In this document: positions 1,981 through 40,451 of the stretch, piece by piece
Numbering within the stretch: the stretch's first letter is position 1
Layout: every line of letters starts with the position of its first letter
DNA from: a virus
Lineage: Duplodnaviria; Caudoviricetes
Virus record (IMG/VR): IMGVR_UViG_3300049170_000040
Coordinates: 1 to 45,225 of that record
Strand: one strand, 5' to 3'
Length of the DNA stretch: 45,225 nucleotides
Made by a program: the position numbers and the translations under genes
Notes under the pieces: generated by a model
Database searches by the model: none
What the model was told of the DNA's origin: nothing
What the model saw: only the letters and a program-made list of their open reading frames with translations

Positions 1981-2370
1981 ATGAGCTCCATGTCCATCTC
2001 CGAGCGCCTCGAGAAGCAGCGCACCGTCCTGACGTGGCTGGAGTACCAGGCCGCGCAGACCCGCAAGGCGATCCGCCAGCTCGAAGCCGAGGAGAAGGAG
2101 GAAGAGCGGCGGCGGGCCGTGGCGCGCGCGGAGATGTCGTGGAAGGTCCTGCCCTCGCGGGCGGTGGAGGGGCAACCGATGCTGCACCGCGGGAACTGCC
2201 GCGTCGACCCGCGCCAGACTGGCCTCCTGTCGTCCGACGAGGTCTTCGTTGCACTGAGGGAGTTCCCGGCCATGGAGATGTGCGAGATCTGCAACGTGTT
2301 CAGCAGCCTCTCCCAGTTCGGGATCGAGAAGCCGCGGCCCCGGCGGCTGCCCGGCGGCGGGACGCCCTAG
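1981..2370 (+). CDS. DUF6233-like protein (coiled coil plus His/Cys domain)
   Basis: LHRGNC...CEIC motif; TAGCAT -10-like element 7 nt before ATG 1981 suggests a leaderless start. Confidence 0.55.
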   Translation: MSSMSISERLEKQRTVLTWLEYQAAQTRKAIRQLEAEEKEEERRRAVARAEMSWKVLPSRAVEGQPMLHRGNCRVDPRQTGLLSSDEVFVALREFPAMEMCEICNVFSSLSQFGIEKPRPRRLPGGGTP

Positions 2371-3293
2371 GAAGCCCGCTTCTTCGTGGCCTTCTTCGCC
2401 GTGGTCTTCTTGGCGGCCGTCTTCTTCGCGGGCTCCTTCTTCTTGGCCGCGGCCTTCTTCTTCGGCGCCGGCATCTGGTGGACGGTGGCGTCCTCGCCCG
2501 TCTCGCCGCGGGCTTCCTTCGCCTTGGCGACGGACTCCTCCAGCGCGGCCATGAGGTCCATGACCTTCCCGGCCGGCGCCTCCTCGCCCTCCGGGGCCTT
2601 CGGCTGACGGTGCTCGGCCTTCGCGTCGATGACCTCGGCCAGCGCCTCGCGGTAGTGGTCGACCAGCTCCAGGTCGTCGAGGCGGTCGACCGACATGGTC
2701 TCCAGGAGCGCGAGCGCGCCCTCGATCTCCTGCTCGGTGAGCGGGGTCTCGTCGGGGCGGAGCTCGTCCGGGGACCTCACTTCGTCGTCCCAGCGCATCG
2801 CGTGCAGCAGCAGCGCGTCGCCGTAGGGGCGGAGCAGGCCGAGACGCTCCCGGCCGCGGAGGGCGAACTTCGCCACGGCCACCTTCTCGTTCCTGCCGAG
2901 CGCCTGCCGGAGGAGCGTGTACGGCTTGGCTGCGACCTGGCCGTCGGCGCTGAGGTAGTAGGACGCCTCGCCGATGTGCCGGCGGTCGATGGAGTCCCAC
3001 GGGACGAACGAGACGATGTCGATCGCTTTCGCGGTCGGCAGCGGCAGGCCGGCGAGGTCGTCGTCGGTGATGGGGATGACGTTGTCCTTGGAGATCTCGT
3101 AGCCCTTGCCGATCTCGTCCTGGTGCAGTTCCTCGCCGTCGATCTCACACACCTTGCGGTAGCGGATGCGGCCGCCGTCCTTCACGTGGACCTGGTTGAA
3201 GGAGATCGCGTGCGACTCGGTGGCCGGCTCCAGCTTGATCGGCACGGTGACCAACCCGAAGCTGATCGCGCCGGACCAGATGTGGCGGGGCAT
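2367..3293 (-). CDS. ku: prokaryotic Ku (NHEJ DNA end-binding protein) with Lys/Ala-rich tail
   Basis: MPRHIWSGAISFGLVTVPIKL, GRIRYRKVC, IGKGYE, DLMAALEES signatures; KKTAAKK C-terminal tail. Confidence 0.95.
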   Translation of the reverse strand: MPRHIWSGAISFGLVTVPIKLEPATESHAISFNQVHVKDGGRIRYRKVCEIDGEELHQDEIGKGYEISKDNVIPITDDDLAGLPLPTAKAIDIVSFVPWDSIDRRHIGEASYYLSADGQVAAKPYTLLRQALGRNEKVAVAKFALRGRERLGLLRPYGDALLLHAMRWDDEVRSPDELRPDETPLTEQEIEGALALLETMSVDRLDDLELVDHYREALAEVIDAKAEHRQPKAPEGEEAPAGKVMDLMAALEESVAKAKEARGETGEDATVHQMPAPKKKAAAKKKEPAKKTAAKKTTAKKATKKRAS

Positions 3294-4031: not shown

Positions 4032-4514
4032 CTACAGCCCGATACCCTCGGACGCTGCATCCGTCCAGGCGTCTTCGTCGCTCTCCTCGCGAGGCAGCTG
4101 CGGTAGGGCGTGCTCGCCCGTCACGGGATTGAGGTAGCGGATCGTTAGGCCAAGGATCCGACTCGGATGCCGTTCGCGGTAGCGCGCGAAGATCGTGTCT
4201 GGGTCCTGGTTGGCCCCTTCGAGAGTGTTGCAAGAGTTGCACAGCCAGCCACGTACAAGCCCTGTCGCGTGATCGTGGTCGCAGACCAGGTCTCTCGCCT
4301 TGCCGCAGATCGCGCAGCGGCCGTCCTGCCACTCCGCGAGGGCGGCGGCGTCGCCGCCGGTGACTGCGTCGGCGGCGCATTCGAGACGCCATAGAACCTG
4401 CGCTTGCCCGGGAGTGCATCCGTTTCGCTCGGCACGCTCAATGAATCGCTGCTTTGCCTCGCCCCCTGGTGGGAGTTGGACGGGCCAGTACCAACAGACT
4501 GGGTTGACTGTCAT
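4032..4514 (-). CDS. endonuclease VII-family (His-Me finger) nuclease
   Basis: CAICG...LVCDHDHATGLVRGWLCNSCN motif; ATGA overlap with the resolvase. Confidence 0.85.
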   Translation of the reverse strand: MTVNPVCWYWPVQLPPGGEAKQRFIERAERNGCTPGQAQVLWRLECAADAVTGGDAAALAEWQDGRCAICGKARDLVCDHDHATGLVRGWLCNSCNTLEGANQDPDTIFARYRERHPSRILGLTIRYLNPVTGEHALPQLPREESDEDAWTDAASEGIGL

Positions 4515-5119
4515 GCCGTCACCTCACTCGCCTGGTCGTGGAGGCGTAGGGCCTGTGAGATGGCGCCGATGCTGGGGTTCTTCCCCTTGCTCTTCCCTTC
4601 GGCGATGCGGAGATGCGGCTGGATCTGGCGGATCGTGAAGCCGCGCTCCCGCAGAGCTGCGGCCTGGATGGTCAGCGCCTCCGTCATCACCGGCTTCCGT
4701 CCGCCGACCCGGCCGCGCTTGCGTGCAGCCTCCAGGCCATCCTTTGTCTTCCGCACGATGTCCCGTCGCCGGTCCTCGGCGAGGGCGAGGGCGAGGTCGA
4801 GAATCAGCGACCTCTCCTTGTGCTCGCCGGCCGCGATGCCCTCGAGCACCTTGACTGCGATGCCTCGCTCGAAGAGGTCGTTCAGGACGATGAGCCCTTC
4901 GAGGAGGTTGCGGCCCAGGCGGTCTACCTCCTGAACGCAGAGCATGTCGCCTTCGCGCACGTACTCGATCGCGGCCAACAGGCCGGGGCGTTCCTCGGTC
5001 AGGAGCTTGCCGCTCATCTTCTCTTCGAAGACCTTGATGCAGATCGGCTCAAGAGCGTCGTGCTGCCGCTGGGTGTTCTGCTTGTCGGTGCTGACTCGGA
5101 CCAGACCGACTAGCGCCAT
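4511..5119 (-). CDS. small serine recombinase (resolvase/invertase family)
   Basis: RVSTDKQ catalytic Ser, ERPGL, DRLGRN, GRVGGRK and C-terminal HTH; 202 aa. Confidence 0.92.
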   Translation of the reverse strand: MALVGLVRVSTDKQNTQRQHDALEPICIKVFEEKMSGKLLTEERPGLLAAIEYVREGDMLCVQEVDRLGRNLLEGLIVLNDLFERGIAVKVLEGIAAGEHKERSLILDLALALAEDRRRDIVRKTKDGLEAARKRGRVGGRKPVMTEALTIQAAALRERGFTIRQIQPHLRIAEGKSKGKNPSIGAISQALRLHDQASEVTA

Positions 5120-5131
5120 CCCACTCCCCTT

Positions 5132-5266
5132 CCGTTCAGGAAACGTCTGTCAACGTATCTGAACGCTAGCAGATTGATGAACGGGTTTCTGAACAACTTC
5201 TGCAGCAGTTAGGGAAGTTCGACCTGATCGCCGTTCAGGTTCACATCTCGACCGATTGATGAACAG
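5132..5266. promoter_or_regulatory. res-like multi-site region upstream of resolvase
   Basis: CGTTCAG (5133-39)/CTGAACG (5159-65) inverted pair; CCGTTCAGG repeated at 5132 and 5231; GATTGATGAAC repeated at 5172 and 5254; AT-richer than the flanks. Confidence 0.6.
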
Positions 5267-5272
5267 TCAGGC

Positions 5273-5332
5273 TGTATAGCGCGCTTGACGTCAGGGCGCC
5301 ATGGCTGCAATCTATGTGTAGCGCGCTACACA
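5273..5332 (+). promoter_or_regulatory. promoter with two operator palindromes
   Basis: -35 TTGACG (5285-90), 17 nt, CAATCT. Perfect 18-bp palindrome TGTGTAGCGCGCTACACA (5315-32) and imperfect copy TGTATAGCGCGCTTGACG (5273-90) overlapping the -35. Confidence 0.7.
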
Positions 5333-5358
5333 GGGTGGCGCCGAGAGGGGGCACCGCC

Positions 5359-5745
5359 ATGAACCTCAGCATCGAGCAGATCCAGGACCTCTTCCACGGC
5401 CGCACCAACGAGGTCGACCGCGGCGACGAGTACGACGTCATCAAGCGCGAAGACGTCCTCGCCCTCGTCGACAACTGCGACATCGACACCGACGACGACG
5501 GCACCCCCCTCGACGACCAGTGGGAGATCCTCGCCGAAGCCCTCAGCGACGCCCCCACCGACAGCCCCCGCGAGCGCGCTCTCATCAACGTCGAGGCCGC
5601 GGCTCAGGGTCTGAACAAGGCTGTAGAGGAGCGCGACGCAGCGATCCGCGACGCCCTCAAGGTCGGCGCCTCCGTCATCTCCATCGCCGAACGCGCCGAC
5701 CTCAGCCGCGCACGGATCTACCAGATCCGCGACGGCCGCCGCTGA
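5359..5745 (+). CDS. acidic N-domain plus C-terminal HTH protein (Aca-like / Acr-HTH fusion candidate)
   Basis: GAGAGGGG RBS; very D/E-rich N-half; ASVISIAERADLSRARIYQIR HTH at the C-end. Confidence 0.7.
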   Translation: MNLSIEQIQDLFHGRTNEVDRGDEYDVIKREDVLALVDNCDIDTDDDGTPLDDQWEILAEALSDAPTDSPRERALINVEAAAQGLNKAVEERDAAIRDALKVGASVISIAERADLSRARIYQIRDGRR

Positions 5746-5760
5746 GTCAGAACACCGCAC

Positions 5761-5818
5761 CCACGCCCCTATGGTCAGGGGATGCACCTCTTCTCCCCGC
5801 GTGCGCGGGGATGGCCTA
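5761..5818 (+). CRISPR. two abutting type I-E CRISPR-repeat-like units, no spacer, no cas genes (solitary repeat unit)
   Basis: 5790-5818 CTTCTCCCCGCGTGCGCGGGGATGGCCTA closely matches the 29-nt I-E repeat (N5-CCCCGC-N4-GCGGGG-AT-N6). 5761-5789 CCACG-CCCC-TATGGTCA-GGGG-AT-GCA-CC-T keeps the same geometry. Confidence 0.7.
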
Positions 5819-5866
5819 CGGCAACAGTCGAGGCAGATTCCTCATCAAACGCAAGGGAGAAGTGCC

Positions 5867-6523
5867 ATGGACTCCACATACAAGGTGCTGGCGCGGATCG
5901 ACGCGCCCGCTGGCATGCCCGCGGAGAAGATTCAACGCGAGGTCATGTCCTACCTGTTCGATCACCCCAGCGTCCGCGTGCGCCTGCTGAAGGTCGACAC
6001 CTGGGTCGATGAGCAGCCCGACAACCTCGCCAACGGTTCCGAGGCGTACCTGGCCACGGCCACGATCGACACCCGCAGCGACCTGCCCTGGGAGGATCTT
6101 CACCGCATCCTTGGAGAGCTGATCGGCGACATCGAGCAGCCGTTGGCTGCGCAGGTGCTGAGGATCGATGAGCGGCCTGACGAGATCGACCAGATCATCT
6201 CCGCCTACCAGTCCCACGCCGACGACATGGTCGACACGCACTTCGACGGGACCGGCCCCCGTGAGCCCGAGCAGACCGTCAGCTTCTGGTGGTACAAGCT
6301 GCCTGCCGATCAGAGCGAAGTACCCGTCACTAGCGGAGGCACGTTCCTCGCCAAGCTGCAGGGCGCGGTACATGTCCCGACGCCAGGAGAGAAGGTGAGG
6401 CTGTTTGGCACTCCTCTCAGGGTCACTGATCGCCACACTGCCTACTCCGCCTTCATCGACGAGGATGGGACGAGGCGGACCGAGGTGCGAGTGGACGTCT
6501 ACGTGGATGTGCTCCGGGCCTAG
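5867..6523 (+). CDS. hypothetical protein (anti-defence candidate)
   Basis: AAGGGAG RBS before ATG 5867; no recognisable motif; co-oriented with the HTH gene and the repeats. Confidence 0.7.
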   Translation: MDSTYKVLARIDAPAGMPAEKIQREVMSYLFDHPSVRVRLLKVDTWVDEQPDNLANGSEAYLATATIDTRSDLPWEDLHRILGELIGDIEQPLAAQVLRIDERPDEIDQIISAYQSHADDMVDTHFDGTGPREPEQTVSFWWYKLPADQSEVPVTSGGTFLAKLQGAVHVPTPGEKVRLFGTPLRVTDRHTAYSAFIDEDGTRRTEVRVDVYVDVLRA

Positions 6524-6548
6524 CTCGACGCTCGACTCCTGGCACAGC

Positions 6549-6579
6549 AAAACGCCCCCGCCCAGACGGGCGGGGGCGT
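6549..6579. terminator. terminator ending the late operon (bidirectional)
   Basis: 12-bp stem ACGCCCCCGCCC/GGGCGGGGGCGT with AAAA on the left. Confidence 0.8.
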
Positions 6580-6580
6580 G

Positions 6581-6925
6581 TCACTTGGCTACGGGGTCCT
6601 TCTTCTTGTGCTTGACCCATGTGGTGATGGCCTGGACGGTCGCCGGGTCCAGCTTGGCGAGCGCGGTGACTGCCTGATCGTCGGCCATGGTCTTCGTGAC
6701 GCCGACTTCGGCGAGGGCCGCATCGAGGGCGAGGGCGTTGGCCTGTTCCTCGGGCGGCGGACCTGGGGGCTCGTCCGGTGGGGGCTGGGTCTGCTCCTCG
6801 AGGACGCCCATGTCGACGAGGGTTCCCATGTCGGCGGCAGACGCGTCGATCCGCCGCTGCACGGGCCGCTCGGCCGGGAGTTCGGCAGGCGGCTCCGGTT
6901 GGGCTTCGACTTGCTGGTCGCTCAC
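6581..6925 (-). CDS. hypothetical protein at end of lysis cassette
   Basis: GGAGG RBS before GTG 6925; GTGA overlap with the upstream gene. Confidence 0.6.
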
Positions 6926-7584
6926 GGGAGCCTCCTGTACGCGGCGGTCGTCGCGAGTAGTGCGGAGCCGAGCAGGCTGCCGCCGTTGTCGGGCTGAGGA
7001 GCCCCGTCGCGGCGGCAGACCAGTGCGTCCGGGTCGTCCTTGGGCGGCTGCAGCGAGTATCCGTCGGGGCAAGCCTGCCCGTCCTTGCCGTCGACACCAT
7101 CGCGGCCGTCGGCGCCGTCCTGCCCTGCCGGCCCGGGTTCACCCTGCGGCCCGGCCGGGCCGGTAGGGCCTGCCGGACCCGCGGGCCCCGGAGGTCCGGA
7201 CGGTCCCACCGTTCCGACCCCGTCTGTACCGGACGCTCCGGGGCTCCCAGACGGCCCGGTCGGCCCCGGGCTTCCAGCCGGACCTGCAGGGCCAGTCGGG
7301 CCGGGATCCCCTGGAGGGCCGGACGGCCCTGGTGGCCCCTCGATGCTGCGGCCGGGCTCGCCGCGGGAACCTGGCGGGCCCGCCACCGGGTCACCTCCCA
7401 TCCGCTCCACCTGCGCGGCCAGCTGATCGCGCGCCTCGTTCGCCGCACGGAGCTCCACCTGAAGCGACCGGACGCTGATCAGGATCCCCGCCATGATGAG
7501 ACCGAGGACGACGGCCGCCGCCAGGGCGAGCGCGTCACCCCGGCGCCAGCGCTTCTCCTCGGCGCGCAGCTGCTTGCGGATCAT
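6922..7584 (-). CDS. membrane-anchored collagen-like (Gly-X-Y) protein
   Basis: N-terminal TM, coiled coil, long GPP/GPA/GAD repeats, Cys pair near the C-end; ATGA coupling. Confidence 0.85.
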
Positions 7585-38960: not shown

Positions 38961-40451
38961 ATGGCCGATCGCGCGTTACTGGAAGAGTTCGCTGCCGAGC
39001 TAAAGAGGTGGCGTGACGTGCGCGGCATGTCTCAGTCGGCTCTCGCTACGGTCGTCGGTTACACGCCTTCGTATATCTCGAAGGTCGAGAGCCAGCAGCA
39101 GCGGCCTTCACGGGAGTTCGCCGAAGCGGCCGACAGGGAGCTGCGGGCCGGCGGCGCGCTTCGCCGGGCATTCCAGGCGCTTGGCGCCAAGCCGCGGGCC
39201 GAGGCGCCTCCGCGTCAACCGGCGGCGCCCGAGCCGTCGACGAGCCTTGTCGTCGAGCACGAGGACACGTCGCTGTACTACGACGGCAGCACGTACCGGG
39301 CGACGCAGCGTCGCCGGCTGTTCAACGGCGGCAGCGAGCCGATCACCAGCTACCTCATCCGCATCTCGGTCGACCGCTATCCCGGCGACCCAGAGCGGTC
39401 GAACCAGCACTACCGCGAGAACCCGCTCACCTGGGAAGAGATCGACCTCGGCGCCAGCATCGACGGCGAGCCGATCGGCTGGCGCGTGCAGCACGACCGG
39501 GACGCCTTCAAGGAGTTATGGCTGCTCTTCGAGAACGAGGACGGCCGATACCCGCTCTACCCCGGCGAGTCGGCGTGGCTGGAGTACAGCTACACCGTCT
39601 CGGACCAGAAATGGGGCACCTGGTTCCAACGGGCCGTGCGCCTACCGACGCAGCGCATCAGCGTCCAACTGGACTTCCCGGCCGAACTGGCGCCCGCGGT
39701 CTGGGGCACCGAGACCACGATGACCGCCACCGGCGGGCCCTTCCGCAATCCGATCCGTTCCTCCACGGAGGACGGGCGGCGCGTGTTCTCTTGGAGCATC
39801 GACGAACCACCCCTTCACGCCCGATACCGCCTGGAGTGGAAGTTCCGGGCCAAAGCGATCAAGGAGCCGAATCTGAACGGAACCGCCGACACGGCCAGCG
39901 CACGCATGGCGGCAATCGGAATCGTCCAGGAGGGCGACCCGATCCTCACGACGCCTGCCCGACTGTTCTCCCTGCCCGACGAGGCCGAGGACGCGCGCCG
40001 CGTCGTGGCCGAGCTGAACTCGGCGGCAGACCGCGCGGCCGGCGTTCACAACTTCGGCAAGGGCATGGGCATCGCAGCCCCGCAGATCGGCATCAACCGT
40101 GCCGCCGCGATCATTCGCACCCCCGAGGGCGAATCGATCACCCTGTTCAACCCTCGAATCATCGAGGACGGCGGCGGCTTCGACGAACAGTACGAAGGGT
40201 GCCTGAGCTTCTTCGACGTCCGCGGGATGGTGCCCCGCCCCATGTCGATCAGCGTCGAGCACACGGACATCGACGGTCAGCAGCGCATCACCATCTTCGA
40301 ACGTGGACACGCCCGACTCGTCGCCCACGAGGTCGACCACCTGCACGGCGAGCTGTACCGGTCGAAGATGCGCCCCGGCGTCGAGCCCATCCCTGTCTCG
40401 GAGTATCGCGGCACCGGCAGCACGTGGCAGTACGGGCAGGTGCAGTCGTGA
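38961..40451 (+). CDS. XRE-HTH / beta-sandwich / peptide deformylase fusion
   Basis: N-terminal HTH_3; all three PDF motifs present: GMGIAAPQIG, EGCLS, HEVDH. Confidence 0.9.
   Translation: MADRALLEEFAAELKRWRDVRGMSQSALATVVGYTPSYISKVESQQQRPSREFAEAADRELRAGGALRRAFQALGAKPRAEAPPRQPAAPEPSTSLVVEHEDTSLYYDGSTYRATQRRRLFNGGSEPITSYLIRISVDRYPGDPERSNQHYRENPLTWEEIDLGASIDGEPIGWRVQHDRDAFKELWLLFENEDGRYPLYPGESAWLEYSYTVSDQKWGTWFQRAVRLPTQRISVQLDFPAELAPAVWGTETTMTATGGPFRNPIRSSTEDGRRVFSWSIDEPPLHARYRLEWKFRAKAIKEPNLNGTADTASARMAAIGIVQEGDPILTTPARLFSLPDEAEDARRVVAELNSAADRAAGVHNFGKGMGIAAPQIGINRAAAIIRTPEGESITLFNPRIIEDGGGFDEQYEGCLSFFDVRGMVPRPMSISVEHTDIDGQQRITIFERGHARLVAHEVDHLHGELYRSKMRPGVEPIPVSEYRGTGSTWQYGQVQS

Follow-up and report, generated by a model that had tools for sequence, protein, structure and literature searches.

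A type I-E CRISPR repeat behind a predicted self-repressing gene module in a probable Streptomyces phage: a candidate decoy RNA

Among the RNA anti-CRISPRs (Racr), RacrIC1 is transcribed together with acrIC5, which it follows at a distance of 11 nt, and two Racrs of type I-E inhibit immunity (Camara-Wilpert et al. 2023, PMC10651486). According to a preprint on Cracr RNAs, plain sequestration fails against type I-E systems that are autoregulated by CreR (10.1101/2024.10.29.618823). Fusions of Acr with HTH domains are described in a group of reports (PMC9001735, PMC9638941, PMC10901769, PMC13530269). Our literature searches listed no publication on a Streptomyces phage that encodes an anti-CRISPR protein, an Aca or a Racr, and none on a natural switch operated by Cas6.

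The DNA analyzed here (hereafter the window) is an entire virus record of 45,225 bases with a completeness of 88%, in which a portal gene and genes of the capsid region were identified, with matches to VG15 and, weakly, to terminase. Features of the locus under study are listed in Table 1. The predicted lack of cas genes was borne out for cas6e, cas7e and cas8e, the three families searched in this 88%-complete record, so that the locus, as in the definitions of Racr and SRU, lies on a mobile element without these genes. The 128-aa protein of ORF1 gave 62 matches including itself, and since all 16 matches with a genus name were from Streptomyces, the host of this phage is likely Streptomyces. 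The cse1 gene was present in 166 of 401 Streptomyces genomes; many Streptomyces cse1 matches (L093-L122) lie in open frames of 1450-1800 aa, consistent with cas3-cse1 fusions. Annotated phages gave no real match to the locus for either DNA or protein. In the soil run X1, which may be the source run, one contig spans 5303-6900 at a depth of 271 without variants there, and no RNA sequencing run carrying the locus was found among the sequencing runs listed. The cassette is adjoined on the minus strand by genes for Ku (2367-3257), endonuclease VII (4032-4514) and resolvase (4511-5119). Ku also adjoins the cassette of one relative (L022), and could shield DNA ends after cuts by CRISPR or restriction. 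Upstream of the resolvase gene, TGAAC/GTTCA motifs are repeated between 5122 and 5264, likely representing its res site. Elsewhere in the record, a 496-aa fusion of an XRE-type HTH with a peptide deformylase domain is encoded (38961-40451, plus strand).

Table 1. Positions of the features of the locus within the window
Feature	Position	Strand	Remark
Operator 1, degenerate palindrome copy	5273-5290	+	overlaps -35; kept in 25 related cassettes
-35 hexamer TTGACG	5285-5290	+	inside operator 1
Likely -10 hexamer CAATCT	5308-5313	+	17 nt after -35
Operator 2, perfect 18-bp palindrome	5315-5332	+	over predicted transcription start; conserved
ORF1, 128 aa, predicted autorepressor fusion	5359-5745	+	acidic N-domain ~1-68, long helix 70-101, HTH 106-124
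Unit 1, worn repeat-shaped unit with 5-bp stem and 6-nt loop	5761-5789	+	possible -10 box TATGGT at 5770-5775
Unit 2, type I-E CRISPR repeat in sense orientation	5790-5818	+	25/29 to host repeat, rank 1
Post-repeat stretch, 48 nt	5819-5866	+	no guide target found; holds ORF2 ribosome-binding site
ORF2, 218 aa, rare protein	5867-6523	+	predicted ferredoxin-like N-domain, beta-rich C-part
12-bp GC-rich hairpin between convergent genes	6552-6579	.	U-run on minus strand only

Inspection of the upstream region confirmed the sequence of the predicted TTGACG promoter, bracketed by a pair of palindromes of which the perfect 18-mer is the longest perfect palindrome of the window. A promoter-scan tool gave no call for the promoter at 5285; its reading is supported by relatives. 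HTH-protein loci with both operator copies were taken as cassettes, other HTH loci being left out of later counts, and 26 distinct cassettes including that of the window were obtained, a number that gives no frequency because they were selected by the operator motif among HTH-bearing loci. In 23 of the 26, xAxxxT is located exactly 17 nt behind TTGAC, with a freely varying spacer sequence, and the two operators and this promoter precede proteins that have the HTH alone in common. Inverted repeats conserved over the own promoter, as known for Aca and Acr-Aca fusions, were thus found in this motif-selected set. Because the operator is conserved together with the HTH and not with the cargo, ORF1 likely represses its own promoter through the two palindromes, as originally proposed, and this is well supported by the conservation. 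The exact operator pattern was present in 2 of the 401 Streptomyces genomes.

The 128-aa protein agreed with its original description as a fusion of a strongly acidic N-half to a C-terminal HTH: residues 1-68 contain 21 D/E against 4 K/R, and the C-terminal part matched phrog_686 (E 2.8e-7). The predicted model (pLDDT 86.7) shows the long helix and the HTH, the helices 106-113 and 117-124 having pLDDT above 90. Best fold matches were HTH domains (Z up to 6.2), and the HTH alone matches solved folds; the domain characteristic of Aca proteins and Acr-Aca fusions was thus identified in ORF1 by profile, model and fold match. The N-domain gave no fold match in searches that barely tested it, as their lists were filled by the HTH, and the ESM Atlas gave no usable match for ORF1 or ORF2. 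ORF1, ORF2 and eight proteins of relatives matched no Acr or Aca family in the libraries searched, in which few Acr models are included, and no known acr gene was identified next to ORF1. The idea of one or two new Acr proteins is left without support beyond their position, and we consider both ORF1 and ORF2 weak candidates for anti-CRISPR activity. The HTH tail is shared by all 26 cassettes; 12 relatives carry the acidic N-domain of the window, nine another type and four are different again, and the conserved operator and HTH tail are combined with no fewer than six different N-terminal domains. Judged from this conservation, the operator-promoter with the C-terminal HTH is a conserved module with swappable N-terminal domains.

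Within 150 nt of the stop codon of the HTH gene, a sense repeat was detected in 5 of the 25 relatives against about 0.07 expected from the background in those loci, a chance figure that overstates independence since the five represent one homologous array. This array is organized in the order of -10, leader, repeat, conserved spacer, repeat and terminator, and its repeats form a CTCC/GGAG stem whereas that of the window is CCCC/GGGG. Because the repeat types differ, the slot behind the HTH gene must have been filled at least twice. The same array also occurs behind an unrelated gene pair (L089, L092). Three more cassettes carry minus-strand mini-arrays within 900 nt, and one plasmid relative carries a repeat about 750 nt downstream. 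The repeat pattern has a single occurrence in each of the phage records G003 (91 kb) and G004 (57 kb), both complete, and a match of this kind is present in the loci downstream of the HTH gene. The fate of the slot behind homologues of the acidic protein, a check suggested by the original prediction, was different: no scoring repeat was found in any of the 12 acidic-domain cassettes or of the three plasmid relatives fetched (four were found), so that homologous loci lacking the repeat, which had been named as evidence against the prediction, do exist in part. As none of these 15 acidic-domain relatives has a scoring repeat in the slot, the view of ORF1 as an Acr is weakened. Between the acidic type (0/12) and another N-domain type (5/9), the difference gave a Fisher p of 0.006 for loci that are not independent. 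The 81% relative ends in a terminator, and in L015, a relative of 79%, a repeat pair seen by eye scores only -0.4 and -12.6. MucR-family genes overlap the end of the HTH gene in two of the three plasmid relatives (L254:2371-3123, L256:2393-3298). Across these loci, the presumed repeat RNA is an optional, swappable add-on with no fixed link to the acidic protein.

For identification of the repeats, a profile was built from the repeats of 87 host arrays, represented by 52 consensus sequences. The alignment of unit 2 to host arrays supported the original reading: it is identical at 25 of 29 positions to the repeat of a real Streptomyces array, ranks first among 90,394 positions in the profile scan, is the sole match above 5 bits in the window, and its score was reached in none of 40 Markov windows. 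The definition of an SRU requires that 90% or more of a known repeat be covered with an identity of no less than 90%, and unit 2 showed 25/27 (93%) against our own repeat set in place of the SRUFinder database. With respect to a solitary position, defined by the absence of a partial copy of more than 70% identity within 100 bp, unit 1 is 15/29 identical to unit 2 by ungapped comparison, used here in place of the SRUFinder local alignment, yet it is repeat-shaped. A mini-array consists of two repeats split by a spacer; here the units abut, and no repeat follows downstream of unit 2. As far as tested, the locus is in sequence a candidate solitary repeat and not a mini-array. No Rfam match was obtained at E up to 1 within 4500-7500, and unit 2 together with its flank did not recur as an exact match in viral contigs.

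The original prediction of two abutting 29-nt type I-E units holds for unit 2 and for the sense orientation, but the two are unequal. The host repeat most similar to unit 1 agrees with it at 17/29 positions, and the profile rank of unit 1, 671, is at chance level (about 576 expected). The pattern CCCC-N8-GGGGATG is located solely at 5766 and 5795, 29 nt apart, with a chance of 3e-7 per position, or 5e-6 for a looser form, the pattern having been picked after seeing the data. Unit 1 keeps five of the six stem pairs. Because this pattern is kept in register 29 nt upstream, unit 1 is likely a repeat-derived but worn sequence. In relatives, TANNNT with a variable middle precedes the first repeat as judged by eye, for instance in L015, where the GGGG is lost. 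Unit 1 may serve as a promoter, as a second Cas6e site, or both. Its derivation from a captured end of a host leader was discarded, as TATGGTCAG was found in one host leader at the wrong distance. The abutting spacer-less tandem had one viral match, the near-abutting units of L088 with the same ATGCACC handle, and none in 381 host genomes, and is not a conserved design. In L079 (3399-3749, minus strand), inspection by eye revealed another viral-type array, in which a TACAGT hexamer is followed by two hairpins directly joined to each other.

Downstream of the repeat, the predicted 218-aa frame and a hairpin were both found, but the U-run of the hairpin is on the minus strand only, and its use as a terminator on the plus strand is inferred. 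ORF2 most likely starts at the ATG at 5867, because a Shine-Dalgarno sequence is present there and its relatives begin there; a 250-aa frame from 5771 was set aside as the usual in-frame run through the repeat. Only three relatives of ORF2 were detected among 1.84 billion representatives, one being from Streptomyces aureocirculatus; viral contigs yielded no locus for these relatives, and plasmids no ORF2 match. The frame behind the cassette of L015 was considered as a homologue of ORF2 but not established as such (E 0.007, 15/42). The model of ORF2, based on two sequences, is poor (pLDDT 50.6). Residues 1-109 form a generic ferredoxin-like domain, of which the best match was an unrelated SEA domain (Z 10.7, rmsd 2.8, 97 aligned). 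By Foldseek, HPPK came first and Cas6 chains matched weakly (E 2e-3 to 6e-3, rmsd 12-13); Cas6 was absent from the best 50 VIA matches. With respect to Cas6 or RAMP proteins, which are characterized by a pair of ferredoxin domains and a glycine-rich loop at the C-terminus, ORF2 gave no Cas6e profile match and one ferredoxin-like domain in a low-confidence model, and inspection of the alignment by eye revealed no glycine-rich loop. No function follows for ORF2 from these fold matches.

The ribosome-binding region of ORF2 (5855-5862) is a perfect complement of the first 8 nt of unit 2 (5790-5797). None of 958 host repeats starts with this 8-mer, and among 70 start regions of the window, the match is found only in that of ORF2. 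In the predicted fold, a rod is favoured by about 4 kcal/mol over the structure that contains the repeat hairpin, the two being mutually exclusive, and the rod would hide both the ribosome-binding site and the repeat hairpin in the free transcript. Shuffling gave z-scores of -4.8, -3.1 and -1.6 for three folding windows; for the first two, the rod values, the ends were chosen post hoc and the repeat palindrome causes inflation. Under stricter nulls, pairing of equal strength was obtained for 7 of 68 other pre-start stretches and for 6% of 2000 shuffles. The Cas6e cut in unit 2, which we take from established Cas6e behaviour to lie between 5810 and 5811, is predicted to leave the ribosome-binding site mostly paired (0.18 unpaired). 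Such a rod would make efficient processing at equilibrium less likely and would be in line with a possible switch.

The stretch behind the repeat was examined for a guide function. Cas5e and Cas7e are subunits of Cascade, and the sixth base of a Cascade guide stays unpaired. Scanned were 100 regions upstream of cse1, up to 5.8 kb each and taken from 150 listed among 217 found. In the control seed scan, 10 among the 20 matches listed were isolated host repeats with a downstream sequence that matches their own locus behind AAC/AAG, 11-20 nt deep. These ten CreR-like RNAs of Streptomyces I-E loci (L123, L127, L147, L158, L177, L185, L195, L197, L199, L203) have AAC/AAG targets 110-315 nt away; they give the PAM and suggest that autoregulation is common. 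The sequence 5819-5850 gave five seeds of at least 11 nt in the same 100 regions, none of them AAC/AAG-flanked, and a search of 401 genomes for PAM plus a 14-nt seed gave 7 matches, none at a cas locus, whereas the reversed control gave about 44 (hand count). The scan covers sampled Streptomyces genomes, not necessarily the own host of the phage, and host guides are diverse. For a Cracr, at least 9 PAM-proximal bases are expected to match a cas or toxin promoter or a host CreR/CreA spacer; no such match was found with seeds of 11 nt or more in these 100 regions or with the 14-nt seed in the 401 genomes. Two viral matches of the post-repeat stretch were rejected as partial and apparently coding. 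The argument that a structured seed proves a decoy was also dropped, since folds of equal stability are formed by 53% of 942 real host spacers. Because no PAM-flanked target was found while the control detected ten, a Racr-like decoy fits better than a Cracr-like guide.

Other arrays of phages were noted in this survey. A conserved spacer of 31-33 nt is present in the phage mini-arrays L021, L035, L038, L072, L076 and L089, with a diverged duplicate in L072. It gave 14 matches against 11 for the control in 401 genomes, all different, and a second site was absent from three of four phage records, at chance level in the fourth, and absent from G002. A leader-spacer helix in these arrays was rejected, as the changes are one-sided only and give no evidence for pairing. 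The virus record L088 (1380-1640, minus strand) carries a cas-less I-E array of five repeats with two 22-nt spacers, likely a Cracr array; in one of these spacers, 13 nt are the same as in the CreR-like spacer of the host locus L158, of which the target has an AAC PAM.

A decoy RNA is plausible because I-E repeats recur in the slot (5/25) and no guide target was found, and to a Racr-like decoy RNA on an Aca-like self-repressing module we give an even chance. From the operator conservation, binding of ORF1 to the operators would allow a burst of expression upon entry or induction. From the likeness to host repeats, Cas6e would then cut the repeat RNA after 5810, and by analogy to RacrIF1 the upstream product would hold Cas6e, possibly with Cas7e, without a targeting complex. 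A further cut in unit 1, after 5781, would release a spacer-less RNA of 29 nt with handle and hairpin, and TATGGT may act as a second promoter from which the RNA is made independently. With respect to one transcript that delivers a crRNA mimic plus Acr proteins, the RNA part of the original prediction thus stays plausible and the protein part lacks support. Against the decoy, the Cas6e site would be buried in the predicted rod if the hairpin does not become trapped while the RNA is being transcribed, and the handle of unit 2 ends with TA whereas host repeats mostly end with CC or CG. The preprint argument on sequestration also counts against it, because CreR-like regulators occur in Streptomyces loci. 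Alternatively, the repeat would be inert, having arrived together with the rare 218-aa gene or as a mini-array in decay, and the autoregulated module would serve a general early or anti-defence role unrelated to CRISPR. The slot without repeat in 20 of 25 relatives, the worn unit 1, the filling of the slot by other genes such as those of the MucR family and the hairpin disfavoured at equilibrium agree with such a passenger, but in unit 2 the stem is complete and the orientation is still sense, the slot has been occupied on two or more occasions, and the absence of the tandem from host genomes indicates that it is no common decay product of arrays. We regard an inert repeat as unlikely.

The pairing with the ribosome-binding site raises another reading, in which binding and cutting by Cas6e open the site and ORF2 is made solely in CRISPR-armed hosts. 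The rarity of the 8-nt complement and the two mutually exclusive folds speak for it, but any I-E repeat has CTCCC, which pairs with a Shine-Dalgarno sequence by nature, the stricter nulls are borderline, the site stays mostly paired after the cut, and there is a single locus without covariation; gating of ORF2 by Cas6e is accordingly quite improbable. Equally speculative is its extension to a phage riboswitch sensing host CRISPR, in which one event traps Cas6e and turns on a new counter-defence protein, with the module as a Streptomyces-wide one and its swappable N-domains as an anti-defence pool. Loading of handle plus 5819-5850 into Cascade for repression of a host cas or toxin promoter would have precedents in the ten CreR-like loci, in the 13 nt that the phage array L088 shares with one of their RNAs, and in the Acr-HTH fusions tied to Cracrs in type I-F, as described in the preprint (10.1101/2024.10.29.618823). 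The lack of a PAM-flanked target in the scans and of a closing repeat or terminator, so that the RNA runs into ORF2, makes a guide very unlikely. As for a full RNA-plus-protein operon, in which both proteins act as Acrs with the RNA, the acidic domain would suit a DNA mimic, the HTH fusions AcrIF24 and AcrIIA15 are known Acrs, and ORF2 weakly matched Cas6 chains among many ferredoxin folds. These points are outweighed by the lack of an Acr/Aca family match, by the acidic domain that does not travel with the repeat and by the alignment of ORF2, in which no glycine-rich loop was seen by eye, and such an operon is the most doubtful of these readings.

The conserved operator with the HTH tail provides a marker for guilt-by-association discovery, and this module has acquired I-E repeat RNAs on more than one occasion. 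Should the decoy reading be true, Racrs extend to the industrial genus Streptomyces; if the repeat gates ORF2 translation, it would represent a natural Cas6-operated switch.

In comparison with known systems, the locus resembles Racr (PMC10651486) in its intergenic repeat on a cas-less phage, in sense orientation just behind a small gene, of what is likely the subtype of the host, and with no guide target found. It differs from Racr in the second worn unit that abuts and in the gene that follows on the same predicted transcript. Compared with acrIC5-racrIC1, a repeat arm can here pair with the ribosome-binding site of the next gene, the upstream gene is no known Acr, and the inhibitory activity is a predicted one. 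Unlike Cracr arrays, neither the RNA of the window nor the 31-33-nt spacer of the relatives has a PAM-flanked target found at a cas locus, and the spacers of the relatives are of full length, not shortened. Those relatives nevertheless share the order of repeat, spacer, repeat and terminator with Cracr arrays, and the locus follows the arrangement of Cracr arrays at acrIF24 (10.1101/2024.10.29.618823; 10.1101/2023.03.03.530964), a fusion gene of cargo and HTH and then a CRISPR-like RNA. In contrast to Aca repressors and Acr-Aca fusions, ORF1 matches no named Aca or Acr model, no known acr neighbour was identified, and its operator binding is predicted. With these proteins (Aca1-14, AcrIF24, AcrIIA15), ORF1 shares an HTH, inverted repeats over its own promoter and a variable cargo.
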